DNA of 64,000 nucleotides from Fibrobacteria bacterium (GCA_037447435.1 JBBIGR010000004.1:139415-203414); one strand, 5' to 3'. Shown: positions 5,355 to 45,832, numbered from the stretch's first letter. Made by a program: numbers and translations. Notes: generated by a model not told the origin, from the letters alone.

Positions 5355-5978
5355 TTATTGCAAACGTCCCATGATCGAATCCAAAACTTTTTTAGACAAA
5401 CCATCCATGGTTTCACTGCCTTGCAAAAGTACGATTCTCTGCGGATTTTTTCTGGCCAAAGCCAAATATCCTTCCCTGACCCTCATAAAAAAATCCCTGC
5501 CGCTCGACTCAAGCCGGTCGGGTAATTTATCGGACTTTTTCAACCTTTCGATCGAAACATCGACATCGACATCAAAAATAAAGGTGAGCGCCGGCTCGAT
5601 ACCGGACGTGGAAAACGCATTGAGTTGCAACAGCGTATCCATGGAAAATCCGCGCCCAAACCCTTGATAGGCAAATGTCGCCTCCTGAAACCGGTCGCAC
5701 AGTACCACCTCGCCGCGAGCCAATGCCGGTCCGATCACTTCGCGACAATGCTGCGCACGAGCCGCAAAATACAACAGCGCTTCGCATTCATTGCTCATTT
5801 GTGAATTGTCGGGAGATAACAGCACGGTACGGATCTGTTCGGCGATATTCGTCCCGCCCGGTTCCCGGGTGACAAGATACGGCAGTTTTTTGTTTTTTAA
5901 TGCGGTTGCGGCCATTGCAACTTGCGTGCTTTTGCCGCAGCCGTCGATGCCTTCGAAGGTTACAAACAATCCGCTCAT
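5355..5978 (-). CDS. tmk: Thymidylate kinase
   Basis: [16 protein letters not shown]-loop, TREPGGT, CDRF, AYQG. The ATG overlaps the secA stop (ATGA). Confidence 0.95.
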
Positions 5979-8900
5979 GTCGCACCGTGACATTTTTTGT
6001 ATTTTTTCCCGCTTCCGCACGGGCACGGATCGTTTCTCCCAACCGCCAGCGCAACATTGACTACAGGGGCACGCTTGGCAGGGCCGTCACCCTGCGGCGC
6101 CCGGTTTGTCGAGGTTTGCTGCGGTTGCGGCATGGGTTGCGCCTCTCCTGCCGACGAAAATATGTCAAATGCCCCGTGAATCGTCTGGCTGCGCTGCAAG
6201 CCCATCCGGTCTTCCTCGGCAGAAACAGCTTCCAGTCTGAAAACCATGGATGCGACCTCTCGCGCAATACCGTCACGAAGCTCCTCAAACATTTTCACGC
6301 CTTCGCGTTGATATTCGTAAAGCGGGTTTTTCTGGCCAAACGCACGATATTGGACGCCGCCTTTCAAATGGTCCATTTCGTACAGATGGTCTTTCCATAA
6401 ATTGTCGATCACCATAAGGAAAACACCGCGCTCGAATTGACGCATGACATCGGCGCCAAGACGCGATTCTTTTTCTTCATACCGCGCCTTGACAAGTTTC
6501 CATATGTCGTCGAACAGTTCATCGATGGTCGACACTTTACTTTCCGGATAAATAACCCCGTACAACATCTGCAATTCTTTTTGCAGGTCTTTGAGGTTCC
6601 ATGATTCCGCGGTCTTGTTCGCTCCTGCATATTTGTAAATGAGCGACTCCAGAATGGCGGCAAGTTGATCTAAAATTTCGTCCTTGATGTCCTCGCCTTT
6701 TAATATCCTTTGGCGCAAGCCGTAAATTTCCTTGCGCTGCAAATTCATGACATCATCGTATTCTTTGAGGTGCTTGCGTATTTCGAAGTTGCGGGCCTCG
6801 ACGCGTTTCTGCGCATTACCGATCGCGCCGGTCACAAAACGATGCGAAATGACTTCGCCTTCCTGCGCCCCAAGCCTGTCCATGATACCTGCAATGCGTT
6901 CGGACCCGAAAATGCGCATGAGGTCGTCGTCGAGCGAAAGGAAAAACTTTGACGACCCGGGGTCGCCCTGTCGTCCGGCTCGGCCGCGTAACTGATTATC
7001 GATACGGCGGGCCTCGTGACGTTCGGTACCGATGATGTGCAATCCGCCCAAACCGACGACGGTCTGGTGTTCTTCGTCGAGCTGCTTGAACAATTTTGCA
7101 AACCGTTTGCGTTTTTCATCGAGCGTCAAGTCTTCGGGCTCAATGCCTTCCTTGACAAGTTCGTTGTTTGCATGGGCTTCGAAATTTCCGCCCAAAACGA
7201 TATCGGTACCGCGACCGGCCATATTGGTCGCTATGGTAACGGATTTGAGACGTCCTGCCTGCGAAATGATTTGCGCTTCCCGCGCATGTTGTTTCGCATT
7301 AAGCACTTCGTGCTGTATTCCCGCACGCAGCAACAATTTGCTTAAGATTTCCGATTTTTCAATCGAGGTCGTCCCCACCAGCACCGGCCTGCCCTTTTCG
7401 TTCATCTCGCCGATTTCCTTGACAACGGCGGCATACTTTTCCTTGTTGGTACGGTATATTTCGTCTTCGAAATCGTTGCGGTTGAGGGGGCGATGCGAGG
7501 GAATGGTGACGACGTCTAATTTGTAAATCTCGTGAAATTCGCCCGCTTCCGTGATCGCAGTCCCGGTCATGCCCGAAAGTTTGTTATACATCTTGAAAAA
7601 ATTCTGAAATGTAATGGTGGCCAGGGTTTGATTTTCGCCGGCGACCTTGACGCCTTCCTTTGCTTCGACGGCCTGGTGCAACCCCTCGCTCCAGCGTCTC
7701 CCGTGCAAAATACGGCCGGTAAATTCGTCGACAATGAGGATTTGACCTTCTTGCACGACGTAGTCGACGTCTTTTTCGAACAGCGAATATGCCCGCAAAA
7801 GCTGCGATACGCTATGTATACGTTCCGACCGCTCCGAATGAGCCCGATGCGCTTCTTCGCGTTTTTCGGATTTTTCAATTGGCGACAGGGATTCGTCGGC
7901 ATCGATTTTCCCGATCAGGTCGGACAAATCGGGCACCACGAAAAAATCGGGGTTCGAACCGCCGATGAGTTCCCGGCCTTTTTCGGTCATTTCGGCGCTG
8001 TGTCCCGATTCATCGATGGAATAGAACAATTCCTCATCTATTTCATGCAGTTTCCGTTCGCGCAGAAAATCGGTTTCAACCTGTTTCATGTACTGCGACA
8101 CGCCCTGTTCCTTAAGGAAATTGATAAGCTTTGGATTTTTAGGCGATCCTCGTTTGACAATAAGGAGTTTTAGCCCCAGTTCGTATTCTTTTCCTTCTTT
8201 TCCGACAAGTTGCTCTATTTCGCCGAGTACCTTTTGAATGAGTTGGACCTGGGCGTTGACCAGACGTTCGACACGCGGTTTGAGTTCTTCGTATTCCCGG
8301 TTCGATTTTGTGACCGGGCCCGAAATAATAAGCGGCGTACGCGCCTCATCGATGAGAATATTGTCGACCTCGTCGATGACGGCGAAATTGAGTTCTCGCT
8401 GCACGAGCTGAGACGGCGACGAAGCCATATTGTCGCGCAGGTAATCGAAGCCGTATTCGTTGTTCGTGCCGTACGTAATATCGCATAAATAGGCGTCGCG
8501 GCGTTCCTGCGTCCCGGGCTCGGTCGTGTCCAAACACCCGACGGTAAGCCCTAAAAAGGAATGAATACGGCCCATCCATTCGCTGTCGCGCCTGGAAAGA
8601 TAATCGTTGACCGTAACCACATGGACACCTTTGCCCGACAACGCATTTAAATACGCGGCCATGGCGGCAACCTGGGTTTTTCCTTCCCCGGTTTTCATCT
8701 CGGAAATATTTCCCTGATGCAAGGTAATCGCACCCATGACCTGGACGTCGAAGTGGTACATGTATGGAATTTCGGTTTTGAAAACCGGATCGAAAACAGT
8801 GCGTTTTTCGCCAAGGACTCGATGCGTTGCTTCCCGAAAAACAGCAAACGCCTCGGGCAAAACGTCATCGAGCGTTGAACCGGCCGAAAGCCGTTGCTTA

Positions 8901-9052
8901 AATTCGTCCGTTTTTGCCTTGAGCTGATCATCCGTCAATGCACGGATACTGTCTTTGAAACTATTGACCGCATCGACTATGGGTTTGATGCGTTTCATGT
9001 CGCGGTCCTGCTTCGAGCCGAACATTGCACCTAAAATTTTCAACATCAGCAT
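5975..9052 (-). CDS. secA: Preprotein translocase ATPase SecA
   Basis: [53 protein letters not shown]-terminal SEC-C motif [13 protein letters not shown]. Confidence 0.99.
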
Positions 9053-9065
9053 AAAAAATTCCGCC

Positions 9066-9752
9066 TTATCTTTCTTGTTGCAACGTAAATTCCGTAAATT
9101 CTATATCTGCGATTTGACCTTTTTCGAGTAAAGAATTGAGTCCCGACCTAAGGCCTATGCGCAGCGAATCGACGACGATATCGTCGAGTGATTTTCCAGA
9201 CAGTGATTTTTGAACCATGACTTTCAAATTATCGCGTTTTACAAGGATTTCCTTTTTTAAATCTTTATTGGCCGAAAACGACAGCTTAAGCGACACCTTC
9301 AACTTGGGTTGTGTTTTATCAATTAACTTACACAATATTCCCGCGAGTGCGACGGAATCTTTCGGCAAATCGGCCACAACGGGAAGGGATTCCTGTACAA
9401 TTTTTTGCGTCGGTTCAACCGCTTTTTGAATCGGTTGGGGTTCGGCTTTTTTTGGCACAACCGCATTGTCTTTGGGCCTTTGTTCAATTTTCTCCTGCGG
9501 TGCCTTGACTTCTTCGACAGCCGGTTTTTCAACGGTTGAAAAAACAGCGTCATTTTGCGGTTGAGCAGACTGTGCCGATTCCCGGGCAGCCTGTACCGGC
9601 GATTCATTTTTCTTGTTTTTCGAAAGCAATAAATCACTGTTATTGCGGATAAAAAGTCCTATTGCGAAACCGACGGCTAAGATGCCGACAATTATCCAGA
9701 GGATATTTTTAGATTGTCCGCGTTTTTTATCCGCCCATGAAGATTCAGCCAT
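9066..9752 (-). CDS. FliL-like single-pass membrane protein
   Basis: N-terminal TM, Pro/Glu/Lys-rich linker, C-terminal domain resembling FliL (LKVSLKL...[21 protein letters not shown]). Confidence 0.6.
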
Positions 9753-9841
9753 TACACACCATAAAAAACGCCGGCATCACAATTCGCAGGCAGAATAAAG
9801 GGTTATCCGAGAAATAGTTTTGAGAATACTGCCGCACAGGT

Positions 9842-10156
9842 TCATGCTTCCTCAACTTTGCAAGAAAGAGGCACGCCACGGGAAAACTTATCAACTAAAT
9901 CGCCCAAAAGCTTTTGCTGTTCGGCGTTTAGCGATTCAAAATGCATCCCGAGCCTAAAGCCTTGAACACGTTCCTGGCAATACACGACACGTGCACTTAA
10001 TTTCAGGGAATTAATCGTAATGGAAAGAACAGCGTCCTTTTCTTTTTTCTTATCGTGATGGCAGCAAACGCCTGTTTTGCTCAAATCAAAAAGCACAGGT
10101 TCATTTTCACCGTTAAGATTAAGAAACTCAATGCGTTCGCTGGCTCTGTCCTTCAT
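9842..10156 (-). CDS. Stand-alone PilZ domain protein (c-di-GMP receptor)
   Basis: RxxxR (RASER), DxSxxG (DLSKTG), ARVVY and GMHF strands. SD sequence aggag upstream. Confidence 0.8.
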   Translation of the reverse strand: MKDRASERIEFLNLNGENEPVLFDLSKTGVCCHHDKKKEKDAVLSITINSLKLSARVVYCQERVQGFRLGMHFESLNAEQQKLLGDLVDKFSRGVPLSCKVEEA

Positions 10157-33200: not shown

Positions 33201-34994
33201 TCATATTGCATAATCCAGCAATATCTCCTGTTGCGACAACCTGCCAATAATAGCCACGACCATTGCGGATAAATTCAGTTTTTCGGATATGATTATTTTA
33301 TTTGCACTCGCCCCATCCTCATGGCCGCCTATTGACACATGAATAAATTCATTTGGAGAAGTCAAACCGGCAAGCAACTGCAAGTCATACGTGTCGGCGT
33401 CTCCCAAGGCGGTTATAAAGAGTAAACCAGCATCGGTAAGAATTCGTGCAAGCTCGCCGAGACGCCGCATCATTTCTTCGCGGTTGTCCGTCTCATTTAC
33501 AACATCAGAATCAAGGCCGTCGGCCAGACTCGATGGTCCGATGAAATATGCATTTTTAGCCGATTTAACGAGAGAACTTTCCAAATGCTTCGCCAGGGCA
33601 ATGCTTTGTTCTGCGCCGGTTATGACTATGAATTTCGCCTTATGCCCGAACACGCTCTGCCTGTCCGCAGGAGTGACGATTCCGGTGTCCCAGTGCAATT
33701 CTCTTTTATTAATTTGCCGATTTATTGCATTGTCGTTTTCATTGATTGCATGCGTTATTATTCCCCCACCGGCAATATCATAATTGTCTACTATCACAAA
33801 CCGACCGGTGAACTGAATATCGTCTATGGTATCAAACGCAATTGCCCTTGTTGTTTCCAAAATGCATTCCGCAACATCGTGACGGTCTATCTGTTGCCTA
33901 CCCTGAATACTGGAAAGGTCTGTTGCATCAATGCACGAAAGAACCTCTGCCAGACGAACTGTAACCCGTGCGGAGGCGATTTTAAGCTTATATTTTTTAT
34001 TTTTTATCATAGGCGCCCTGGCCATCCAAAAAATATTGGCTCTGAAACGCGACCCCACCATCGGATGTCTTTCCTTACTTTTGCACATTATTTCGCCGCG
34101 GGGAAGATATAATTCATTTGCCAGAGTAAAACCGGTTGCATGTCCTTTACCTATAGTTTTAACTTCAGGCGAATTAAAACCTTCGATCGTTGATATTTTT
34201 GATTTTTTGTACGACGGCAAAAAGGTTACGTCATCCCCCACAGCAACAGTCCCGGTTTCGATAGTGCCTGTAATGATACGACGTTCATCATCCTTTTCGG
34301 TAAACTTGTAAACATCCTGTACCGGCATTCGAAACGGTTTCGCGTCATCGTCCTGCTGTTTTACAAAAGCATCAACATGGTCGAGAACGGTTTTACCGTC
34401 GTACCATTTCATTTTATCGGATGCAAATGCCAGATTATCACCGTCCCTGGCGCTAATTGGAATGAACTCTTTTGCCGAAACGCCTAATTGTTTTAAGAAT
34501 GAGCCATAATCCGTCGCAATAGATTCGAATACTTTTTGATCGAATTTTACAAGGTCCATTTTATTGACAAGAACAACAACCTGAGGAATTCCCAACATGG
34601 CAATGAGATACCCGTGTCTCCGTGAATTTTCCCGAATCCCTTCATGTGCATCGATAACCAAAAGAGCGGCTTCCGCCCGGGCGGCCCCACTCACCATGTT
34701 TTTAAGAAATTCAACATGCCCCGGGGCATCTATGATGATATAATCGCGCTTCTTTGTTTTAAAAAAGCAACGGGCAGTGTCTATGGTTATGCCTTGTGCC
34801 TGCTCATCTTTCAACGCATCGAGTAAAAACGCATATTCGAACGGCCTCGCATTGCGCTCGCACGAAACCTTGACCTGCTCCAGCTTGCCGCTTGGCAATG
34901 AGCCGGTATCTGCAAGTAATCGGCCGATGACCGTACTTTTTCCATGATCGACATGGCCGACAACGACAATGTTCATCTGTTCACGTATTTTCAT
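33201..34994 (-). CDS. cysN: Sulfate adenylyltransferase subunit 1 with a degenerate C-terminal APS-kinase-like domain
   Basis: [48 protein letters not shown]. Confidence 0.92.
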
Positions 34995-35048
34995 ATTTAC
35001 ATTTCCAGTGTTTATTATTTTTGTACGCATGGCCCAAAGGCCCTGTAA

Positions 35049-35930
35049 TTACATATAGCCGTCTTTACGCAAAGTCTCTAAACCGCCGCCGTCGGCCTTG
35101 TCTTGTTCCCTGCCCGACCGCTCCGCAATATTTGCAAATTTTCCCGATCGAAGTTCTTCGATGATTTCCTGTACTGTCGAGGCTTCCGAATCGACCGGCG
35201 AGGTGCAGGGCCAGCAACCCAAAGACCGATATCGCTTTCCATTTCCCCGATTGTAATACAGAGAAACCGTGGGAATACTTTCTTTTTCGATATACTCCCA
35301 AATATTCAGTTCTGTCCAATCCAGAAGCGGGTGAATTCGTAAATGCGTTCCCGGAGCAAAATCTGTTTTAAACTGGTTCCACATCTCGGGCGGTTGATCG
35401 GCAACGTCCCATTCATTCTCCTTGTCGCGCGGAGAAAAATACCGTTCCTTCGACCTGCTGCCTTCCTCATCCGCCCGCACGCCGGCAATGACTCCGGTGT
35501 ACGGTTCCTTATTTGCATCCACATCATAATTACCGGTTGCATGATTCATCCGATACCGCGGCCAATCGCCTGCCAAAGTATGTTTGAGCGCATCGGTCTT
35601 GAGGTTCTTGCAGCACCCAAGACGGTCCACCTTTCCACTTTGATATGTCAATTGCTGTCTAATTGCTTCCGTATTTTCGCCGTATACCATATTCAAATGC
35701 CATTTCCGGGCCAAATCATCCCGGTATTGAATCATCTCAGGGATTTTGAAATGGGTGTCGATATGAACAAGAGGAATCGGCACATGCCCGAAAAAAGCTT
35801 TGCGGGCCAGCCATAACAGTACGGTGCTGTCTTTGCCGATAGACCACAGCATGCAAAGGTTTTTAAAATCGCGATATGCTTCTCTTAAAATGTAAACGCT
35901 TTTCGCTTCAAGTTTTTCAAGATGGTCCAT
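35049..35930 (-). CDS. cysD: Sulfate adenylyltransferase subunit 2
   Basis: [53 protein letters not shown] terminus. Confidence 0.95.
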
Positions 35931-35932
35931 TT

Positions 35933-36667
35933 TTAGTCCTTGCCAATGTTCGTATTGATATTTTTCGGCCTGTTATGCAATCCGCATTCCTTATGCTCGG
36001 GTTCCTCCCACCACCACCGTCCGGCCCGCACATCGTCATCGGGGCCAATAGCCCTTGTACAGGGCGCGCATCCGATGCTTCGAAATCCTTTTTCGTACAA
36101 TACGGACACGGGCAGAGATTTTTCACGCACATAAGAAAAAACGTCTGCTTCTTTCCAATTACATAAAGGACTTATCCGGTAGATTTTATTGACATCGTCC
36201 CATTCAACGGGCGAAAGATCCGTTCTGGTAACGGATTGTTCGCTACGCAAGCCAACGATCCACGCATCGACTGTAGACAATATCTTTTGAAGCGGCCGTG
36301 TTTTTCGCACAGCACAACAGGATTTGCGGGATTCTACATTGTCGTAAAAAAGGTTTGGACCATTTTTCCGGGTAAGTCGCCCAACATCCTCCGGATCCGG
36401 AAAGGCAACTTCATAGGAAATGTTAAAATGTTTTGTCGATTCATGCCATACATCATAGGTTTCCTGAAAATGACGCCCTGTATCAAGCGTAAATAAACGG
36501 GCACGGGGATTTTCGGAAACCAGCATATTCGTGAGAACCTGGTCTTCTGCGCTGAAACTTGAAGCCAGAGCAATATGCGTAAGCCCAAATTCATCCAAAG
36601 CCCAGGCAATTAAACAAGCAGCGCTCATATGCTGGGTTATCTCGCGATAGTCGATTGCTTTTTGCAT
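35933..36667 (-). CDS. cysH: APS reductase ([4Fe-4S]-type CysH)
   Basis: SSFSAED, LDTGR, CC pair in [28 protein letters not shown]. Start at MQKAID with SD ggaggt. Confidence 0.93.
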
Positions 36668-36686
36668 TATTATTACCTCCTTTTCC

Positions 36687-36917
36687 CTAGATCGTATATT
36701 CGGGAGCGGTGATTTCACTGCGACCGAATTTAATACGATTCCATAATCGCTCATGAAAGTAATAAAGAGTTATCTTTGTAAATAATTCGACAAACCCAAT
36801 CGAGAGAGCCACTCTAATTTTCCCGCTTATCAAATACGAAACAATGATAGTGTCGAAGGTCCCTGTCAGTCGCCAAGAAACGGCTTTGACAACACTGCGA
36901 TATTTTTTCTCAACCAT
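36687..36917 (-). CDS. DUF2061 small membrane protein
   Basis: RSVVKAVSWRLTGTFDT...LYYFHERLWNRI. Confidence 0.85.
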   Translation of the reverse strand: MVEKKYRSVVKAVSWRLTGTFDTIIVSYLISGKIRVALSIGFVELFTKITLYYFHERLWNRIKFGRSEITAPEYTI

Positions 36918-39280
36918 TAATTTCCCTTTCTGATGCGTACAATCCAATAATCATCGATTTTTACCTGTTCGAGAACCAAATGACCTTCTTCGGTTATTGA
37001 GCGTGGGACATTATCTATCGGCGCGCCGTCATCGAGCGTAATTTCGAGAATCTGGCCCAAGGACATTTTGGCCAATTCCATTTTGGTTTTAACAAAGTTC
37101 ATAGGACAGGCAACTCCGCGTAAATCCTTGACATAATCGATATTTATTTTTTCTTCGGACGTTTCTGCGGCAACAGTAACATTCACTTGCCCTTGGACCT
37201 TGAATTGAAGGGAATTGTCCATTCCCTCATAAAGTTTTTCAACGGCCGTCGACAGCTCAAGTACTTGCTCTTGCAAAGAGGATAAAACCGTATCCTTTCC
37301 CGCTATTGCCCTTTCAATCAGGTCCGCGAACCTTGCATCAATAAGATTTTCATTAATAAACAATGTTTTGAAAGAGCGTAATACATCAGCATCGGTCGCT
37401 GCCTCCACACCGCGGGTAATGAGCAGCATTCGAGAGCTCACCAGTACAAGATCGTACAATTCGCTCTGAATAGAGGCACTATTATAATTTTCGTTTATAA
37501 ACGACCTGAGTTCCCGAAGCTTTGCCAAATCGATTTCTATTAAATCAAATAATCCTGCGGAGCATTCGCCGGTGCCTTTGCCGGCAAGCGAGAAAATTTC
37601 GGAATCTCCCCAATCGCGATAATAGCTCTTATCAATTTCAAACTCAGGAATGTTCCTGAACTTATCGCATAATTTTCGTATTATTTCTTTTCCTTCGGCG
37701 TTTATATATTCGCTGAAGCGGGAATAAACCGATTTTCTTTTTCCATAATGCGCCAACAATTCTTCAACAAAAAACGGCAGATCCTTTGCATTTATTTCAT
37801 CTATTTTCTCCGCAAGCTGAAAAGCCCCTTCCGCATCGATACGCGCACCGGCCACAACAAAATATGAAGGAAAACTGTGCTGATTTTTACGACCGACTTT
37901 TCCGAAAAAGCCGAGATCAGCCACCGAATGCTGTCCGCAGGTATTTGAACAGCCCGAGACATGAATATGCAGATCATTGAAATCATCAAGATTAACATCA
38001 GCAAATTTCAATTGATCGACAATACCCTGCAGAGCACCGCGAGACCGGCAAATTCCAAGCTGGCAGGTACTCGCGCCTGCGCAGGCAACGGCATTTCCAA
38101 ACAATGGCGCATACGCCGATAGGTAGCTCACTTTTTTGACGAGACGGTATACGTTTGGAAGGAATGGCAAAGGAATATTCCGCAGCGCAATATTTTGATT
38201 ATGCGTAAACCGTATGGTGTTTTCGCCGAAAGGGATTAAAAATTCCGCAAGTGCCAATGCCTTTTGCGCATCAATAATACCAAAGAGCAATGGAATTTTA
38301 ACAAATCCCGATTCGCATTGTTTTTGTATTCCCGTATACCGTTGTTTCCAGGTTTCAAAATCAAGCGATGTGGCAGTATCCGGGGCAATTTCTTTTGGCA
38401 ATGCTTTTTCATTTTTATATTCCGTAATTGTCAATACCTGCAATCCTTCTTTTAAAAGGCCGGCTTTTTCTTCGTTGTATAAACTGACAAATTTGTCCCT
38501 GCCGAGGGAATTCCATAAAAACCTCAGTCTTGCAGCGTGCTTGTTTTTCCGGTTGCCGTATTTTGAGAAAACGCGTTTTATCGCTTCGGCAATAACGAGT
38601 ATTTCGGATGCGGGAACAAATTCGTGAAGCAAATGTCCTGCTTGAGAAAGACGCCCCATTCCTCCGGCCACAAGCACTTTAAATCCGGGCTTATTGTCTT
38701 TGATTGAGGCAATAAGGCCCAAATCATTGACTGTTGCAAAGGCAGTATCTTTTTCCGAATTCGAAAAAGCTATTTTGTATTTGCGCGGCAAAAGCCATGA
38801 ATCACTCCGCGCAATGAGCGATGTCGTCAATGCGGCAGCATAGGGTGTGACGTCAAATAGTTCGTCTTGGGTAATGCCGCTGTCCCAGGGCGCGGTGATG
38901 TTTCTTACCGTATTTCCACCGCCGCCCCGCGTCGACAATCCGACATCTGCCAGGCCGCGGATGATCGGCACCAAATCATCGATGCCAACGTCATGGATCT
39001 GAATCTCCTGACGCGTTGTCACGTGCAAAGATCCGGAGCCAAAGCGCTTGGAAAGCTGCGCGATAGTTTTGAGTTGAAATGGGGTTATAATGCCTGCGGT
39101 GCATCTCACCCGCACCATGTACGTGTCTTTTTTTCGCTGTTCGTAAACGCCGAAGGGAACCCTATGGGCCTTTAATTCGGTTGGCAAAACCGATCCTGCA
39201 TGGTAATTTTTTATCAGTACTTCTAATTCATCAATTTCGTTGTGTAGAGAAGCCGGTATCGAATAACCCTGTAATGACAT
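36917..39280 (-). CDS. Siroheme nitrite/sulfite reductase with a C-terminal TusA-like domain
   Basis: GVYEQR, HVTTRQEIQ, LPRKYKIA, cluster ligands ACAGASTCQLG and SGCSNTCGQH, C-terminal DLRGVACPMNFVKTK. Confidence 0.9.
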   Translation of the reverse strand: MSLQGYSIPASLHNEIDELEVLIKNYHAGSVLPTELKAHRVPFGVYEQRKKDTYMVRVRCTAGIITPFQLKTIAQLSKRFGSGSLHVTTRQEIQIHDVGIDDLVPIIRGLADVGLSTRGGGGNTVRNITAPWDSGITQDELFDVTPYAAALTTSLIARSDSWLLPRKYKIAFSNSEKDTAFATVNDLGLIASIKDNKPGFKVLVAGGMGRLSQAGHLLHEFVPASEILVIAEAIKRVFSKYGNRKNKHAARLRFLWNSLGRDKFVSLYNEEKAGLLKEGLQVLTITEYKNEKALPKEIAPDTATSLDFETWKQRYTGIQKQCESGFVKIPLLFGIIDAQKALALAEFLIPFGENTIRFTHNQNIALRNIPLPFLPNVYRLVKKVSYLSAYAPLFGNAVACAGASTCQLGICRSRGALQGIVDQLKFADVNLDDFNDLHIHVSGCSNTCGQHSVADLGFFGKVGRKNQHSFPSYFVVAGARIDAEGAFQLAEKIDEINAKDLPFFVEELLAHYGKRKSVYSRFSEYINAEGKEIIRKLCDKFRNIPEFEIDKSYYRDWGDSEIFSLAGKGTGECSAGLFDLIEIDLAKLRELRSFINENYNSASIQSELYDLVLVSSRMLLITRGVEAATDADVLRSFKTLFINENLIDARFADLIERAIAGKDTVLSSLQEQVLELSTAVEKLYEGMDNSLQFKVQGQVNVTVAAETSEEKINIDYVKDLRGVACPMNFVKTKMELAKMSLGQILEITLDDGAPIDNVPRSITEEGHLVLEQVKIDDYWIVRIRKGN

Positions 39281-39355
39281 TAATTTTCCTTCCTGACACT
39301 TATACCTCCCGCCGAGCCCCATCTCATCGCAGAGAGGGGAAGTTTGGAAAGCGGA

Positions 39356-39580
39356 TTAATTATTTTTCTCTATGAGGATACGGTAATGGCTGCCTTCGTT
39401 CTTAATTTCGAGTATGCGATGTCCCTGTTCTTTGGCCGCTTTTGGAACATTGACCAACGGTTCCTCTTCGGAAAGCAGCACGTCCAATATATCACCCGGT
39501 GAAATTTTCGAAAGCCCTAATTTGACTTTCACAAAAGTCATAGGGCAATGGTCTTTTGTTATATCGAGCGTATGTGTCAT
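39356..39580 (-). CDS. TusA family sulfurtransferase
   Basis: LDITKDHCPMTFVK...NVPKAAKEQGH. Confidence 0.88.
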   Translation of the reverse strand: MTHTLDITKDHCPMTFVKVKLGLSKISPGDILDVLLSEEEPLVNVPKAAKEQGHRILEIKNEGSHYRILIEKNN

Positions 39581-39623
39581 AATTATTCTCTTTTCCACTA
39601 TATGATTATCTCACTCATTAACT

Positions 39624-40109
39624 TCATGAAATGAATATAACCTGGCCATTTTTTGAATATTCCAAAAATGTCGGTACGCCGATGACCTCTTGTACGTCAT
39701 CAATTAAATCGGATTTTTGAATTCCAAGGATATGCATCGCCATTTCGCAGGCAACCAATTTGACCTTGAGCTGTTTGGCCGATTCTATAAGTTCGTCGAG
39801 TGTTGCGACATTGCGTTTTTTCATCATCCCGGTCATGAGTCCCGGGCTAATGCCCCCAAAATTCAAGCGGGACAGTGGTAAATTTTTACTGCCGCCCATA
39901 AGGAAATTGAAAAAACGAGCGAGAAATCCTTTACCGATAGTAGAACGCCCCTGTTTTTTCTTCAGGATATTAAGCCCCCAAAAAGTAAAGAACACATTCA
40001 CTTCCCAATTGACCGCAGCAGCACCGGTTGCAAGAGTAAAAGCGGCGACCGCTTTGTCGAAATCGCCTGAAAAGCATATGATCGATAATTTTTTTGTTTC
40101 GTTTTCCAT
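39624..40109 (-). CDS. DsrE2/DsrE-like sulfur transfer protein
   Basis: SGDFDKA, VFFTFWGL, LSRLNFGG, ACEMAM. Confidence 0.88.
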   Translation of the reverse strand: MENETKKLSIICFSGDFDKAVAAFTLATGAAAVNWEVNVFFTFWGLNILKKKQGRSTIGKGFLARFFNFLMGGSKNLPLSRLNFGGISPGLMTGMMKKRNVATLDELIESAKQLKVKLVACEMAMHILGIQKSDLIDDVQEVIGVPTFLEYSKNGQVIFIS

Positions 40110-40121
40110 AACGTCCTTCTT

Positions 40122-40517
40122 TCAAACAACAACTATTTTTTCCAGTACCACATTTCCATTTTTTATAATAAACGATTTTACGGTTTCCTGTCCGTTTTCA
40201 AGGGAAACTATGACGTAACTTATAGACGGATCATAGGCAAGCCGGATGTCTTCCTGCGAGGGCCGCGCTGGAGTCGCCGGATGGCTATGATATACCGCGC
40301 GAAGTTTCATACCAAATCCCCGTATCCTTTTGACCGTATCAAACTGTTGTTTAGGGTCCAAGGAAAAATGCTCGGCCGAGGCATCGGTATTTGTCAAAGG
40401 ATAATTTACGGTAACGACGTCATCTGTTGCAGCCAAATACCCGCACGCTTCGATCGGGGCATCTTTTTTCGCATGCGCAATCATCGAATCAATAACCTGT
40501 TTTTGAATCTTTAACAT
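40122..40517 (-). CDS. JAB/Mec (M67 family) metallopeptidase, sulfur-carrier processing
   Basis: PIEACG, JAMM motif YHSHP...PSQED. Confidence 0.92.
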   Translation of the reverse strand: MLKIQKQVIDSMIAHAKKDAPIEACGYLAATDDVVTVNYPLTNTDASAEHFSLDPKQQFDTVKRIRGFGMKLRAVYHSHPATPARPSQEDIRLAYDPSISYVIVSLENGQETVKSFIIKNGNVVLEKIVVV

Positions 40518-40543
40518 ATTGACCTCTTTGTACCTATATCTGA

Positions 40544-40570
40544 ATTATCTACGCATTTTGCGTAGATAAT
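40544..40570. other. Perfect 12-bp stem-loop between the MoeB-like and Mec genes
   Basis: attatctacgca-ttt-tgcgtagataat. Confidence 0.6.
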
Positions 40571-40605
40571 CGATAATATAAACTTATCCCATGGGAAGCA
40601 TGGGG

Positions 40606-41415
40606 TCAATGCTTAATATCGCAAACCGGCTGTTCCTCGTCGAAAAGTTCGGTTATGGTCGGCCTTTCTCCGCAAATCGCACAGTCTTTCCTTTTCCGCA
40701 AATTGACATTGCGAAATTCCATATCCATCGCGTTGAATGTCAGCAACTTATTGGTTAAGGGTTTGCCGACGTTGGTAACAAATTTGAGTGCTTCAGCTGC
40801 TTGTATGGTCCCCAGCATTCCGGCTATTGCCCCTAAAACCCCGGCCTGCGAACAAGTCGGCACAACATTTTTAGGAGGCGGAACAGAAAAAACGCATCGG
40901 TAGCAAGCCGAGGTTCCTGGAATTACAGTCATGGTTTGCCCGGTAAATCGCAATATGCCGCCGTGCGAATAAGGGATTTTCTCCAAAACACAGGCATCGT
41001 TTATAAGGAATTTTGCGGCAAAATTGTCTGTGCCGTCGATAATGAAATCATACCCTCTGATGATGTCCCGAATCGTGTCTGCAAATACATGTTCCGCAAT
41101 CGCATTGACTTTCACATCAGGATTAAGTTCGGCGATTTTTTCCTGTGCCGAAAGGACCTTCGGTTTTTTAATATCTTTTGTAAAATGTATGATCTGGCGC
41201 TGCAAATTCGAGAGATCGACACTGTCGCCGTCCACGATCCCCAACGTCCCTACTCCTGCGGCGGCAAGATAAAGCGCCGCAGGAGCTCCAAGCCCGCCGG
41301 CACCGATTATAAGGACTTTGCTTTTCATAATCTTCTCCTGGCCTTCGATGCCCACGTCCTTGAGAAGAATATGCCGGCTATACCGTTCGAGCTGGTCTTC
41401 AGTAAAGTCAATCAT
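40606..41415 (-). CDS. MoeB/ThiF family adenylyltransferase (no rhodanese domain)
   Basis: RYSRHI, GAGGLG, DLSNLQRQ, DGTDNF, CYRC, TCSQAGVLG, CAICG. Confidence 0.93.
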   Translation of the reverse strand: MIDFTEDQLERYSRHILLKDVGIEGQEKIMKSKVLIIGAGGLGAPAALYLAAAGVGTLGIVDGDSVDLSNLQRQIIHFTKDIKKPKVLSAQEKIAELNPDVKVNAIAEHVFADTIRDIIRGYDFIIDGTDNFAAKFLINDACVLEKIPYSHGGILRFTGQTMTVIPGTSACYRCVFSVPPPKNVVPTCSQAGVLGAIAGMLGTIQAAEALKFVTNVGKPLTNKLLTFNAMDMEFRNVNLRKRKDCAICGERPTITELFDEEQPVCDIKH

Positions 41416-41506
41416 AATTTATCCAATCCTTGCTCAAAATCCTCGACTGTTGGTATCCGAGAATAGGCATGAGGCGCCCCATGAATCGCCTTTAAAGCAA
41501 AGCCTT

Positions 41507-41716
41507 TCACCTGCCACCCCCCATAAAGTACAGAAACTCAATCTCGTCTTTTTCTTTAATAAGGGTAGAGTCAAAGTTTTTCCGGTCAACAAACTCACCG
41601 TTTAATTGAACCGAAACCATGTCCGGCGCTTCAACTTTAAACAATTTTAAGATTTCCGGAACAGCGATAGAATCGTTCGTTATTTGTTTTAGTTCACCAT
41701 TCACTTTGATTTCCAT
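41507..41716 (-). CDS. ThiS/HcyS-like sulfur carrier protein with a capped C-terminus (GGG-R)
   Basis: IKVNG, VSVQLNGEF, DEIEFLYFMGGGR-stop. Confidence 0.9.
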   Translation of the reverse strand: MEIKVNGELKQITNDSIAVPEILKLFKVEAPDMVSVQLNGEFVDRKNFDSTLIKEKDEIEFLYFMGGGR

Positions 41717-42056
41717 ATTTTGCCTCTTTTCGAAATTCTTATTCTCAGCCATAAGTCATTTAAAGCAACTAATCAGCCAATATATTTCGAGAATTAAACG
41801 AACTTTTTGTTTACTACATTTATCAACTATAAATAATATAAGCTGAAAACGAAAAAGAGTCAAGAACTTTTTTTAATTGTTTATAAACATTGTTAACTTT
41901 GCCATTGTTTATTAATTAGCTTTGGCTTTTACAAGTAAAACGAGATAATCTTTAAGTTGTTGATTACAAATTAAAAACGAAGAAAAAATTGAGGAATAAT
42001 ATGGCTAAATTAAACAATCGGAACATTAAATTTTAGAAGCGGAAAATCCGTAAAAA

Positions 42057-43124
42057 TTACGTCTGTGCTTCGAACACAAAGGGGAAAACGACTTCGACCG
42101 GGCTTCCCCCGTCTACTGCAGGGAAAGTCCAACGTTTGACATATCGCACGAGGGTTTCATCAAATTCGGAATTTTTAGTTGTGGAACTGACTATGGCGAC
42201 ATTTGAAACGCTGCCATCGGGCATGATGGTGAATTTTATCTTGATTTGACCGGCAAGCGATGGATCGCGTTTAAGCCACGTTTCATAAACACGTTTCAGC
42301 CTATTGCTTTCAAGGTCAATGACCTTTTTAATTGAGGTTTGCGAACGTTCTTCGGCATTACTGGTATTGCCGGTCACTTCCGGAGCGGAAGAAGAAATTG
42401 CAACACCGCCGCCAGTAGTTATTTTTTGCGTTTTGGCTTTTCCGACACTTTCCTTTGCGATGTCGACACCCGATGTAACAGCCCCGCGCTTTGCCTTTAG
42501 GTCTGCGACATCAACATTCTTTGTTGCAAACGTGCCTTTGGAAACAGTGATATTTCCTAAATCGCCAACTCCCTCTCCTGCCGCACCGAGCAAATCGGAA
42601 ACAGGACTGTTTGATCCGCCTCCGCCTCCGCCGCCCGTGGAAGTTATTGCAGCAAAAATTCCAGCGGATTGAATGGCAGCCTTAACCTTTTCCCTGGCAA
42701 CCTGACGCTGCTCTTTCGTTGCTTCCTGGCGTTGTTGTCGCTGAACAAACGTTTCCTTTTCCCTATCGACCTTGACTTCCTCTTCCTTGGTTTCCGTTGC
42801 GGTTTCCTGTGTCTTTTGCGTTGCTTCGACCGCTTTTTCCTCTTTTTTAACTTCGGGAGGTTTTGGTTTTGGCTGATTCAACACGAGCTGTGCGTAGCGC
42901 TCCTGAATCTTGACGATTTCCTGCTCGCTTACCGTCGTATTGATCTTTCGTTGTGAGAGAATAGATACGGTGACAAATGCAAATAAAAGCAAAGAGCCGA
43001 AAATTATGGCAAAGCGCGGTTCGATGCGCGAAAGCAGGTTCCGCTTATATTCTTTTGGGAAATTCCCAAGCGGCCCTGCTTCTGCAGGATGATGCATGAA
43101 AAATATGCCCGATTGCGCAGCCAC
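42057..43124 (-). CDS. TonB-like energy transducer with an AgmX/PglI (GltG-like) C-terminal domain
   Basis: Single TM, Pro/Lys/Glu-rich linker, Gly-rich segment, C-terminal YETWLKRDPSLAGQIKIKFTI...WTFP...FPFVF. GTG start after SD aagga. Confidence 0.8.
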   Translation of the reverse strand: MAAQSGIFFMHHPAEAGPLGNFPKEYKRNLLSRIEPRFAIIFGSLLLFAFVTVSILSQRKINTTVSEQEIVKIQERYAQLVLNQPKPKPPEVKKEEKAVEATQKTQETATETKEEEVKVDREKETFVQRQQRQEATKEQRQVAREKVKAAIQSAGIFAAITSTGGGGGGGSNSPVSDLLGAAGEGVGDLGNITVSKGTFATKNVDVADLKAKRGAVTSGVDIAKESVGKAKTQKITTGGGVAISSSAPEVTGNTSNAEERSQTSIKKVIDLESNRLKRVYETWLKRDPSLAGQIKIKFTIMPDGSVSNVAIVSSTTKNSEFDETLVRYVKRWTFPAVDGGSPVEVVFPFVFEAQT

Positions 43125-43128
43125 GTAC

Positions 43129-43632
43129 TTATCCTTTTCTGTAAACAACAAGATTCATGGACGGATAACCGGCCTGGCCGCAGGTGTACATAATTCTCGT
43201 AAGAACATTGTACGGAATTGCGACATCTCCCTGTATGGATATCTTGCCTGAGAATTCGGTTTTGAACATTGCGGAAGATTTTTTCGCCTCGTCGGAGTAT
43301 TTTTTCAAAACTTCATAGAGAGGCTGTATCATGAAATCCTTTTGCGCCATGAGATCGGAATAGGCTTTGGCATCGATGACGATTTTATTTTCCACCATAA
43401 TGGTGGATTTTGAAACCATGACATTCAGGGCCTGACCGGCATTTTTTTCAATCGACGATGTCGGCAATAGTAAATTTGTCGCAGGAGTAACGAGCTGTCC
43501 CTGCGCAGAATAATTCTGCAAAAGGAATACCACCATGAGCGTAAACATATCGATCATGGACGTGATATTGAGCCTAACGGTGCCGTCACCGCGTTTACGT
43601 CTGCGTCGTCGTATTGATTGTCCTGCCGGCAT
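43129..43632 (-). CDS. ExbD/TolR family protein (AglS-like)
   Basis: Basic N-terminus, LNITSMIDMFTLMVVFLL with the conserved TM Asp, IQGDVAIPY, TCGQAGY. Confidence 0.88.
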   Translation of the reverse strand: MPAGQSIRRRRRKRGDGTVRLNITSMIDMFTLMVVFLLQNYSAQGQLVTPATNLLLPTSSIEKNAGQALNVMVSKSTIMVENKIVIDAKAYSDLMAQKDFMIQPLYEVLKKYSDEAKKSSAMFKTEFSGKISIQGDVAIPYNVLTRIMYTCGQAGYPSMNLVVYRKG

Positions 43633-44942
43633 TATTGTATTATCCCTCCGGCAATGGAAACATTAGGGAACATGGTCACGTTTCCGTCGGGTGTCCGGGT
43701 GCCGCGTGCGGCATCCATGACAGCCACCACCGTTTTATAGGCGATTTTATCTTCGGCAACGATTTTTATCGCATCGTTATCGGGAAACATTTTGCCCGGA
43801 TCGATTTTTTTTGTTTCATAAGCTCTGCCCAATTGAAACAGACTTGCGTCCTGCGGAATGGAAGGATAATACGCCCGCATGATATCGTTCAGCACTTTTT
43901 TCTTTACATCAGCAAGTTTGGCATTAAGCCCGACATAATCGTATTCACCGTTTATCAATGGAATATCCGGCTGTTTTTGAGCCATGGTTGCGCCTTGCGC
44001 TGCAGATTTGTCTTCCTGCTTGAAATAATGGAATAAAGTAAATCCTTTTTGCGTGATCACGACGCCCAATTCCAATTTCGTTTCCGAAGTTGCGCCGGCT
44101 CCGCCGCCACCGCCGCCGCCTTGCGTCGCTTCAGGCAATTTCAATTCTATTGCCCCCATCTTTACGAATTCGGATGAGGTGAGCAAAAACGGGATAAGCA
44201 TAACCATGAGGTTCAACATGGGCGTGACATCGGTGTCCGCCGCTTCTTCTTCATTGCCGCTTCTCCTCACCAGTGAGTTTAAAGCTTTGCTGGTGACCGT
44301 CGGTGGATTAAGATTGTTGAGAATCGCAATTGCATACCGGTCGATTTCGACCAGTGCAGTGTCGACACGCGAACGCAGGAACGAATACATCATGACACAA
44401 GGAATACTGATTGACAATCCAACAAGCGTCGAATTCATTGCAGCGGAAATTCCCGCAGCAAGCAAAGCCGATTTTTCTATTGCGGCAACACCGGGACGCC
44501 CAACCGCGGCAAACGACATTATCAAGCCGAAAACAGTACCGAGCAATCCCAGCAACGTCGAAACGTTTCCAAAAGCAACAAGCAAGCTAAGCCTTTTTTC
44601 CATCGAAGCGGCCATGTGTGTGGATTCTTCCCCCATTGCTCCGGCAATGAGATGCGGCTCTACTTGCGCTTTTCGTATCCCGGCTCCGAGTATGCGGGGA
44701 AGAGCCCTATGCCCGCCCGAGGCGCAGATTCGATATGCTTCGTCAAGGTTTTTATCATCGATGAGTTTTTTTATTTTTTCAAAAAATCCGACCGCATCAT
44801 AGTCGGTACGGCGGTTTATCGCAAGCCATCGCTCAACGGTAATCAAAATGGCTGCGATGCCGAGTGCGGAAAGCAGCCACATGAAGAAAAACGCTTCATG
44901 CGCAGGAAGAAAACATTTTAATAATTCGCCGAAAATGCCCAT
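43632..44942 (-). CDS. MotA/TolQ/ExbB - ExbD/TolR in-frame fusion protein
   Basis: ExbB part: ITVER, TLLGLLGTVFGL, GISAAMNSTLVGL. ExbD part: DVTPMLNLMVMLIPFLL, IELKLP, IAYKTVVAVMDAAR, FPNVS. No stop codon between the two. Confidence 0.85.
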   Translation of the reverse strand: MGIFGELLKCFLPAHEAFFFMWLLSALGIAAILITVERWLAINRRTDYDAVGFFEKIKKLIDDKNLDEAYRICASGGHRALPRILGAGIRKAQVEPHLIAGAMGEESTHMAASMEKRLSLLVAFGNVSTLLGLLGTVFGLIMSFAAVGRPGVAAIEKSALLAAGISAAMNSTLVGLSISIPCVMMYSFLRSRVDTALVEIDRYAIAILNNLNPPTVTSKALNSLVRRSGNEEEAADTDVTPMLNLMVMLIPFLLTSSEFVKMGAIELKLPEATQGGGGGGGAGATSETKLELGVVITQKGFTLFHYFKQEDKSAAQGATMAQKQPDIPLINGEYDYVGLNAKLADVKKKVLNDIMRAYYPSIPQDASLFQLGRAYETKKIDPGKMFPDNDAIKIVAEDKIAYKTVVAVMDAARGTRTPDGNVTMFPNVSIAGGIIQ

Positions 44943-45710
44943 TTAGATATTGATCTCTTTTATCAATTTATTGTCGGTAAAAATTTTAATGTTGTTGTGC
45001 GTTACGTGCAGACCAACGCCTTCCTTAAGCTGCGATGCGCTGATATGATATTTATGCGTTTTAAAAGATTTTTCAATAAGCGCATTGAGCACACGAACAG
45101 AATATTCGTCCAATTCATCGATTATTTTTTGGGTTTTGGCTTTTAAAAACGCATAAATCATGATGGAGGTAATGGCAACCGACAACCCGGTAAACGTCGA
45201 GTTCATGGCTGTCGCGATACCAGAGGCAAGAAGTTCGGACTTTTGTGCGGCATCGATACCCGGACGACCGACCGCGGCAAACGACATGATAAGACCGTAC
45301 ACGGTTCCTAAAAGTCCTAACAATGTTGCGACATTACCGATGACTGCCAGGTAACCCGTGCGTTTTTCGAGCAGCGGAATTACCTTTAGCATAGACTCGT
45401 CTATAGCATTGCGGATACGTTCGGCACCGGTATTAGCCTCTTCAAGACCGGCCTTTACTACGCCGGCCAATGCCATTCTTTTTCCATTATCGCAAAGCTT
45501 GAGAGCGGAGGGCACATCGTCTTTTTGCAGCATTCCGAGAATTTCACGGATAAATTGGTTCGAACGGAAGCCGGACTTGCTTGTCAAGAACACAAAACGT
45601 TCTATGATTATTGCCAAGGCAAATACGCCGGTAACTAAAATTGCCCACATGAAAAGAAATGCATCTGATTGAGGGCTGAAAGCGTGAAGAAGTTTGAGAA
45701 TAAACTCCAT
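44943..45710 (-). CDS. MotA/TolQ/ExbB proton channel protein (AglR-like)
   Basis: IIIER, NVATLLGLLGTVYGL, GIATAMNSTFTGL. Confidence 0.9.
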   Translation of the reverse strand: MEFILKLLHAFSPQSDAFLFMWAILVTGVFALAIIIERFVFLTSKSGFRSNQFIREILGMLQKDDVPSALKLCDNGKRMALAGVVKAGLEEANTGAERIRNAIDESMLKVIPLLEKRTGYLAVIGNVATLLGLLGTVYGLIMSFAAVGRPGIDAAQKSELLASGIATAMNSTFTGLSVAITSIMIYAFLKAKTQKIIDELDEYSVRVLNALIEKSFKTHKYHISASQLKEGVGLHVTHNNIKIFTDNKLIKEINI

Positions 45711-45832
45711 GAAGTTTCCTCCGTTTAAATAGCGTAGACGAAATTGTTGATCAGCACTAATTCTAATCTATAAATAAAATATAATATTATTCAATAAAGA
45801 AAACGATTTTATGAAAATACCTGAATTTTTTA

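Follow-up and report, generated by a model that had tools for sequence, protein, structure and literature searches.

A 64,000-nucleotide stretch of DNA from a Fibrobacteria bacterium (GCA_037447435.1, JBBIGR010000004.1:139415-203414; the window in what follows) includes on its minus strand, between nucleotides 43632 and 44942, a gene in which an ExbB-type ring subunit and an ExbD-type axle subunit are fused into one protein of 436 amino acids (46.9 kDa), with asparagine (Asn) at the position of the catalytic aspartate (Asp) of the axle helix. This fusion is real, conserved and old and not an accident of assembly, and it is obligately paired with a dedicated free ExbB that carries a C-terminal tail. 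The operon, all on the minus strand, has the order free ExbB, fusion, free Asp-type ExbD (Asp-ExbD) and GltG-like TonB-type protein, and the fusion and the free ring gene likely build a lopsided one-aspartate motor.

The original prediction, made from this sequence, held that a single open reading frame (ORF) of 436 codons carries both domains, and this was confirmed by the reading frame, which has no stop codon throughout, and by Pfam, which placed PF01618 at residues 82-200 (E 5e-23) and PF02472 at residues 231-415 (E 2e-12), both above the cut-off. The linker, the helix DVTPMLNLMV with Asn244 and the sequence ITSMIDMF of the next gene, with Asp28, also read as quoted there. Hydropathy and an AlphaFold2 monomer gave three ExbB helices and a fourth helix at residues 235-263. 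The model, with a mean predicted local distance difference test score (pLDDT) of 73, consists of an ExbB domain, a disordered linker, this helix and a folded periplasmic domain, and its best matches among known structures, using Foldseek, were TolQ and ExbB chains (target TM-score up to 0.77). The ExbB domain (residues 1-211, nucleotides 44310-44942), defined by residue conservation and Foldseek, includes the pore threonines T136 and T172. It is followed by the linker (residues 212-238, nucleotides 44229-44309), which from its span length and pLDDT would represent the old ExbB C-terminus and the old ExbD N-terminal arm, by the axle helix (44154-44228), in which Asn244 (codon 44211-44213) aligns with the catalytic Asp position across 45 fusions, and by the periplasmic ExbD/TolR-type domain (43635-44087), which matches PF02472 and is folded in the model. 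The linker is predicted to be disordered and exposed, with pLDDT below 50 at residues 218-235; its identity among the fusions is 32%, and the distance from D201 to P241 is 39-41 residues in 44 of the 45.

Conservation and origin of the fusion

A 96-residue query covering the junction was run on 296 genomes of the phylum, and a full match free of stop codons was found in 57 of them (a count that includes the present genome), with identities down to 34%. The search for relatives carrying both domains that had been proposed with the prediction returned PF01618 and PF02472 in all 120 of the homologues listed, out of 303 found, and inspection of close relatives for a stop in the linker gave full-length, stop-free matches in 21 of 40, at 49-75% identity. 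One public contig spans the linker with zero differences, although it possibly comes from the same source DNA and is not an independent confirmation. An assembly error or one-off loss of a stop codon could be argued from the existence of single, unclustered double-domain proteins, but it is refuted by the 57 genomes with an uninterrupted junction, their range of identities and the single group that they form in the tree, and we consider it practically out of the question. Three such proteins with ExbB and an Asp-type ExbD (P0145, P0152 and P0161), unrelated and in one-member clusters, account for 3 of 120 entries listed and seem to stem from sporadic loss of a stop or from frameshifts. Fusions to Asp-type ExbD were also sought among longer proteins, with one junk match, which as a negative is weak evidence.

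The distribution of the fusion is patchy, as the tail linked to it is found in 0 of the 151 genomes of the largest family. The few homologues labelled by organism belong to Chitinispirillaceae, Chitinivibrionales or Fibrobacterota. Two fusion loci, L034 and L038, are labelled Proteobacteria and Bifidobacteriales, respectively; the genes and coordinates of L038 are those of genome G240 of the phylum, and such labels are unreliable. The sole broken fusion, in G069 (the same record as L062), is accompanied by indels in several genes of the operon. In samples of 151 and 33 genomes from two neighbouring phyla every full-span match was interrupted by a stop codon, and one 436-codon frame found there and considered as a fusion turned out to be split. 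The 151 include two unpublished genomes, G444 and G387, on which no claim rests.

A scan over 27 of the 64 parts of the collection gave 568 candidates, and the best 80 of these yielded 79 loci: 19 with an intact fusion, 59, from other phyla, with a single ExbB and a separate Asn-type ExbD (Asn-ExbD), and one frameshifted. A stop codon lies between ExbB and ExbD in all 59 split loci. The statement that Asn-type ExbD also occurs as a separate gene therefore holds for each of them, as well as for three other operons of the present genome. In 57 of the 59 split loci, those that could be scored, the ExbB end and the ExbD arm together make up 37-39 residues, a span that the fusion linker exceeds by only about 2-3 residues. 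The [YF]xPS motif of the arm is found in 57 of the 59 free Asn-type copies versus 6 of the 45 fusions. Because the two spans are so close, and because the motif is kept in deep-branching fusions, the fusion appears to have arisen by loss of a stop codon that joined the ancestral ExbB end to the ExbD arm, and the Asn/Asp axle pair would be older than the fusion. As regards programmed read-through in the split relatives, 30 of 59 loci have an in-frame gap, but the gap length varies between -4 and 87 bases.

A quick tree of 150 ExbB domains placed the fused domains in one group and the free tailed ExbB proteins in another (support 91 and 97, respectively), and the two were sisters. The support of the fused group was 91-94 across trees, with two long-branch outgroup rows beside it in the 150-domain tree. 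A 92-row tree, from which near-copies and one long row had been left out, did not reject a joint clade of fused and free tailed domains (p-AU 0.52), which is no proof of that clade. The fused ExbB domain evolves faster than the free one.

The free ring subunit and the initiation signals

The gene immediately upstream of the fusion (44943-45710, minus strand) encodes a free ExbB/TolQ-type ring subunit of 255 amino acids, a paralogue of the fused domain as judged from PF01618 (E 5e-26), the TolQ/ExbB fold and the sister grouping. Its last 44 residues (44946-45077) constitute a tail, probably cytoplasmic, that was delimited in a 42-sequence alignment and modelled with pLDDT 58-73. The mean pairwise identity of the tail over the 42 sequences is 74%, a conservation equal to that of the pore helices, and it is predicted to fold as a short helix followed by a three-stranded sheet. 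An upstream free ExbB with the 44-residue tail is present in 19 of 19 loci with an intact fusion, while neither a second ExbB nor the tail is found in any of the 59 split loci. Across the 296 genomes the tail occurs in 57, of which 55 are shared with the set that has the junction; of the four discordant genomes, G013, G079 and G243 are explained by contig ends and G069 by its indels. The fusion is thus obligately paired with a dedicated, tailed free ExbB.

Searches of Pfam and the ESM Atlas with the tail gave no match. That it could be a relic of the ExbD periplasmic domain was rejected on profile comparison (probabilities 0.2-6%). A profile comparison of the beginning of the tail with the fused linker, of which it might be a copy, gave 1.4% and did not confirm the relationship. 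An anchored, in-register test of the same two segments resulted in p values of about 1.5e-4 (28 fusions with Tyr at the anchor) and 7e-4 (all 45), compared with 0.23 for the tail start against the free Asn-ExbD; the anchor was picked by eye and post hoc, and the resemblance is a lead only. No terminator signal above that of shuffled sequences was detected between the two ExbB genes, nor was a common hairpin in seven long gaps. The gaps of three genomes of the same genus (L002:2812-2898, L003:1338-1500 and L004:2809-2912) contain short repeated 7-base units.

The two ring genes differ in their translation-initiation signals. The free ExbB gene is preceded by the Shine-Dalgarno sequence GGAGG (45718-45722; -9.5 kcal/mol), and the fusion gene lacks such a site (-2.9 kcal/mol). 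The pairing energy was scored in 33 of the 45 distinct fusion loci, after leaving out those cut by contig ends, those with uncertain starts and near duplicates. The free ExbB site was the stronger in all 33 (medians -9.5 and -2.6 kcal/mol), reaching -7.5 or stronger in 31, and the fusion site was weaker than -4 in 29; the gaps between the two genes range from -1 to 163 bases. The genome baseline, taken over 824 genes, is -4.4, with 19% of the genes at -7.5 or stronger. The values in the split loci were -11.4 for the single ExbB (53 scored), -5.7 for Asn-ExbD (57) and -6.4 for Asp-ExbD (56). With the ancestral single ExbB at -11.4 and the free Asn-ExbD at -5.7, the fused ExbB looks as if it had lost a ring-level site and come to resemble a single-copy subunit. 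For the ATP-synthase operon of the present genome, whose genes were assigned by motif and recognition, the values are -12.0 for subunit c, -7.0 for beta, -4.2 for alpha, -5.8 for b and -1.5 to -4.5 for the single-copy subunits. The stronger site of the free ExbB would fit a ring with four free subunits to one fusion. The complex of four free ExbB, one fusion and one free ExbD put forward in the original prediction is consequently backed by the co-occurrence of the fusion with the free ExbB and by the unequal sites in 33 of 33 loci, from which we infer the stoichiometry itself.

The same loci bear on whether the protein remains fused. It could be a polyprotein, its linker being cut or an internal start giving a free Asn-ExbD, so that the working motor is unfused. 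The disordered, exposed linker with its basic and acidic residues speaks for this, and 17 of the 33 loci have an in-frame start codon of some kind in it. None of these starts is conserved, and their positions are scattered. Five of the 33 loci have an ATG, and three have a start whose site reaches -5 or stronger; no conserved site for cleavage is recognizable at 32% identity, and a separate, co-occurring free ExbB would be unnecessary. Cleavage of the linker, one of the outcomes originally contemplated, is therefore unsupported, and we regard the polyprotein as quite improbable.

Proton path and proposed stroke

The threonines T136 and T172, which we take from their motif position to correspond to E. 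coli Thr148 and Thr181, are invariant in 45 of 45 fusions, 42 free ExbB proteins and 59 outgroup ExbB proteins. In E. coli ExbB the pore threonines are Thr148 and Thr181 (PMC12215075). The free Asp-ExbD, of 167 amino acids (43129-43632, PF02472), whose start overlaps the stop of the fusion, carries Asp28 (43549-43551), which is invariant in 52 of 52 aligned sequences. At the equivalent position the 45 fusions have Asn in 37, Gly in 6, Ser in 2 and Asp in none, with Asn in all 131 closer homologues, and the free Asn-ExbD copies have Asn in 59 of 59 and Ser or Gly in none. Constraint on the fused helix thus appears to have relaxed after fusion. The linker has 28 residues and a contour of about 100 Å for a climb of about 52 Å, which would leave modest slack for the fused helix to enter the pore of the ring that it is joined to.

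The Ton and Tol motors that have been solved consist of five ring subunits surrounding two helices, with N-terminal arms in the cytoplasmic cavity, and in rotary models two Asp residues act in alternation (PMC12215075). In E. coli the D25N variant of ExbD has no activity and a dominant-negative effect, and the same preprint argues for a turning of the two ExbD helices against one another (bioRxiv 10.1101/2022.09.26.509584). The standard rotary model, in its present form, has no place for a natural Asn/Asp axle, as it requires alternation between two Asp residues and D25N is inactive.

Because the fusion co-occurs with the free ExbB and their Shine-Dalgarno sites are unequal, we propose a mixed 4:1:1 motor of four free ExbB, one fusion and one Asp-ExbD, in which the Asn helix would be a fixed dummy and the stroke a limited one on a single aspartate; this full mechanism is the reading that we prefer, although our judgement on it is evenly divided. 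The fusion would be made at the level of the axle, not of the ring, so that most rings would hold one copy. Its linker would make a U-turn at the cytoplasmic mouth and climb the cavity along the path of the old ExbD arm, so that the helix which binds no proton would end up inside the pore of the ring to which it is joined. The Asn/Asp pair would thereby be fixed, and helices from the three paralogous motors of the genome would be excluded. Protons would pass solely by way of Asp28 and the ring threonines, and the Asp helix would rock, or turn by a fraction of a revolution, relative to the held helix before resetting, with no unlimited stepping of both. The stroke would pull the GltG-like protein and, through it, a large tetratricopeptide repeat (TPR)/outer-membrane complex, for which secretion, adhesin handling or envelope upkeep are candidate outputs.

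The contention that unlimited rotation is prevented by a covalent tether went too far. The backbone bonds allow a single chain to swivel, and F1-ATPase cross-linked at the end of the gamma helix still rotates (PMC3536650), so that a tether of this kind need not be a bar. A limited motion is what we infer; it is no topological necessity. The F1-ATPase result is one of several points that weigh against a limited stroke. Another is that neither threonine of the fused domain has changed in any of the 45 sequences despite the faster evolution of this domain, as if every subunit met the Asp in turn. The [YF]xPS motif, moreover, is found on the arm of Asp-ExbD in 0 of 19 fusion loci; of 57 split loci 17 could not be scored, and 35 of the other 40 have it. 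Its loss would let this arm slip round a swivelling tether. The Shine-Dalgarno energies are a crude proxy, for 40-44% of the baseline genes are weaker than -4 too, and the loci are related, so that their counts are not independent; the eight losses of Asn in the fusions amount to about 3-4 events on the tree. Finally, the Asp-ExbD site, located within the last codons of the fusion, is strong, with a median of -10.3 and with 25 of 33 loci at -7.5 or stronger, and its Gly codon is GGA in 24 of 26 cases versus 188 of 758 at other Gly codons, so that its codons look to be under selection at the DNA level. Such a site may help ribosomes to re-initiate where the stop and start overlap. Alternatively, it may provide an excess of Asp-ExbD; a surplus could form axles with two Asp residues in rings that are free of the fusion.

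Several of these points would be expected if the same 4:1:1 complex had an Asn/Asp axle that rotates without limit, the linker swivelling, the Asp arm slipping past it and each proton on the one Asp advancing the axle by roughly a fifth of a revolution, and the fusion served only assembly and specificity. Besides the invariant threonines, the lost arm motif and the behaviour of F1, the variable and disordered linker agrees with it, and a rotary mechanism is preferred for Ton and Tol (PMC12905483). The length of the linker is nearly fixed, however, and close to the ancestral span; the cavity would have to hold two arms, with four conserved tails that, from the model, likely lie at its mouth; and Asn is dispensable after fusion (8 of 45) but not in the free copies (0 of 59), which suggests that the helix no longer engages the threonines. 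Unlimited rotation is in our opinion possible though not probable. The strong and apparently selected Asp-ExbD site next to the weak one of the fusion, together with the dominant-negative D25N of E. coli (bioRxiv 10.1101/2022.09.26.509584), could instead indicate two populations, an ordinary motor of five free ExbB and two Asp-ExbD, and a scarce fusion that acts as brake, plug or targeting subunit of idle or specialised rings. We think this unlikely, since the Asp-ExbD start overlaps or abuts the fusion stop in most loci, which points to coupled and roughly equal synthesis, and since in the split ancestors the two ExbD sites are similar (-5.7 and -6.4) under one strong ExbB, as would be the case for a 5:1:1 complex.

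The limited stroke on one aspartate can be extended to a wider proposal, which we put forward as doubtful: that one Asp per motor, without free rotation, is the rule for an entire branch of the 5:2 motors. The Asn subunit would be a built-in stator post, docked to the ring through its arm in several phyla but covalently attached in Fibrobacterota. The tail starts would be copies of the linker, so that five equivalent strands and four sheet domains would cap the cytoplasmic mouth, and the motor would be a reciprocating puller that could stand in for the GldLM motor of type IX secretion.

Partner protein and genomic neighbourhood

The last gene of the operon (42057-43151, minus strand) encodes a GltG-like TonB-type transducer that consists of one membrane helix, a long linker and an AgmX/PglI C-terminal domain, and is recognized by NF033768, NF033760 and PF03544. 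The AgmX/PglI model NF033768 scores 86.6 bits (cut-off 40), and the GltG model NF033760 matches with E 5e-34 and 117.7 bits, compared with a cut-off of 650, the match being confined to the C-terminal half. The predicted membrane helix, residues 47-65, has no His, and the SHLS motif, a Ton/Tol feature of the partner's membrane helix (PMC12905483), is absent from it.

Of the split loci, 55 of 59 have large TPR genes upstream, compared with 4 of 33 fusion loci. The best match to them in the present genome is on another contig, C24, apart from the operon, where a 1025-residue, repeat-rich surface-type protein (CHB_HEX_C, PKD and FGE-sulfatase domains) and a 1935-residue TPR protein are encoded (L120:4354-13226, which is G000 C24:48353-57225). 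Homologues of both are located directly upstream of the fusion operon in L039. The two proteins are likely detached partners of the motor. A small exported-looking protein (104-139 amino acids, no family match) is encoded just upstream of ExbB in many split loci (for example L067:9500-9904 and L126:4030-4440) and is absent from that position in this window.

The three further operons of the present genome (G000 C2:107638-109243, C8:29122-32243 and C39:3992-7329) are unfused and encode ExbB, Asn-ExbD and Asp-ExbD. An AgmX/PglI-domain protein follows two of them and large TPR genes precede two, and in each the Shine-Dalgarno sequence of ExbB is stronger than that of Asn-ExbD. Elsewhere in this genome there is a SprA_N match (E 4e-23, in a translocon gene; C8:60071-61354) and a weak PorV match (C11:32926-33363); a search of the genome for GldM gave no match, but the control was likewise without a match anywhere, so that no weight attaches to this result.

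Of the 33 fusion loci, 28 have a cluster containing SecA at most 10 kb from the operon. Here the genes of this cluster (window 5975-10156) lie about 32 kb downstream of the operon, which ends at 42057, with a sulfur-assimilation cluster in between, an arrangement that suggests an insertion or rearrangement. The sulfur cluster (33201-41752, minus strand) encodes ThiS, ThiF, a JAB protease, DsrE, TusA and a sulfite reductase fused to TusA, and continues with genes, recognized by eye, that resemble those for 3'-phosphoadenosine-5'-phosphosulfate (PAPS) reductase and sulfate adenylyltransferase subunits.

Relation to known motors

Literature searches, mostly without subscription papers and supplements, found no paper on an ExbB-ExbD fusion and no characterisation of the unfused Asn/Asp operons. 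Look-ups by term in the available text of PMC12905483, PMC12204202, PMC9389320 and PMC11658791 did not trace such a fusion, and neither did that of PMC8986121. A figure legend of PMC12204202 mentions 'fusion genes' in tol-pal loci, and the supplements of this paper and of PMC3169522 may bear on novelty. Some members of the fusion family are already labelled with both domain names in databases. Rotation of Ton/Tol-type motors is still argued from static structures, and according to a 2026 review there is no in vitro activity test for them and the wrap-and-pull model is largely speculative (PMC12905483). A natural one-Asp motor with a covalent link between ring and axle would be a ready-made test of the need for free turning, with unfused relatives as controls, some of them in the same genome, and with a linker that is open to shortening, cutting or lengthening. 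The link also marks one ring subunit and one helix, breaking the symmetry that hides rotational states in structural work. For AglQ/AglS-type motors the existence of mixed dimers is an open question (PMC9389320), and the fusion would force one.

The system shares with the 5:2 MotA/TolQ/ExbB motors the ring fold (PF01618 in both ExbB domains, TolQ and ExbB chains as the top Foldseek matches) and the two pore threonines (45, 42 and 59 sequences), and only the free ExbD supplies the essential axle Asp. It departs from them in that ring and axle, which are otherwise separate chains, are encoded by one ORF, and probably also in that both helices of those motors carry Asp, which the fused helix does in 0 of 45 sequences, a difference that holds if the axle is mixed. 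The models for canonical Ton and Tol proteins all score below their cut-offs (TIGR02797 exbB 63/221 bits, TIGR02796 tolQ 50.8/206, TIGR02801 tolR 23/127). With the E. coli TolQ5-TolR2-TolA and ExbB5-ExbD2-TonB complexes (PDB 9ddm, 9ddn, 8odt, 6tyi and 9ddo) it has in common the ring fold, the threonines, the ExbD/TolR domain and a TonB-type C-terminal domain in the partner. Those are homo-pentamers with homo-dimers, made from separate genes and with two Asp residues, whereas here there is a covalent link and a mixed ring and mixed axle are predicted; in addition, a Thr occupies the position of Pro141 in the second membrane helix (TM2), and the partner helix lacks His. Engineered rotor-stator cross-links of F1-ATPase (PMC3536650) likewise join the axle end covalently to the ring, in an artificial, unrelated and ATP-driven system.

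Judged from gene content and domains, the motor appears to be Agl/Glt-core-like and neither a canonical Ton nor a canonical Tol system. The Agl-Glt core (AglR, AglQ, AglS, GltG and GltC/D/E; Luciano et al. 2011, PMC3169522) also has one TolQ type and two TolR types followed by a GltG-like protein; it has been reported in Fibrobacter succinogenes, and its function outside gliding myxobacteria is unknown (PMC3169522). Here, on the other hand, the ring gene is duplicated, one copy being fused to the first axle gene and the other tailed, and one axle helix lacks the Asp that AglQ and AglS both have (PMC9389320). The GltG model is matched in part and the AgmX/PglI domain above its cut-off, while TPR genes equivalent to GltC/D/E are not linked to the operon in this window, and the large TPR genes linked to the split loci have only a weak GltC match (E 3e-7). 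The nearest relatives are the unfused operons of ExbB, Asn-ExbD and Asp-ExbD labelled KSB1, Calditrichota, Latescibacterota and Electryoneota, whose ring subunit is 40-48% identical. They share the Asn/Asp pair and the GltG-like partner and differ in their single, untailed ExbB, in the invariant Asn and in the arm motif on both types of ExbD.

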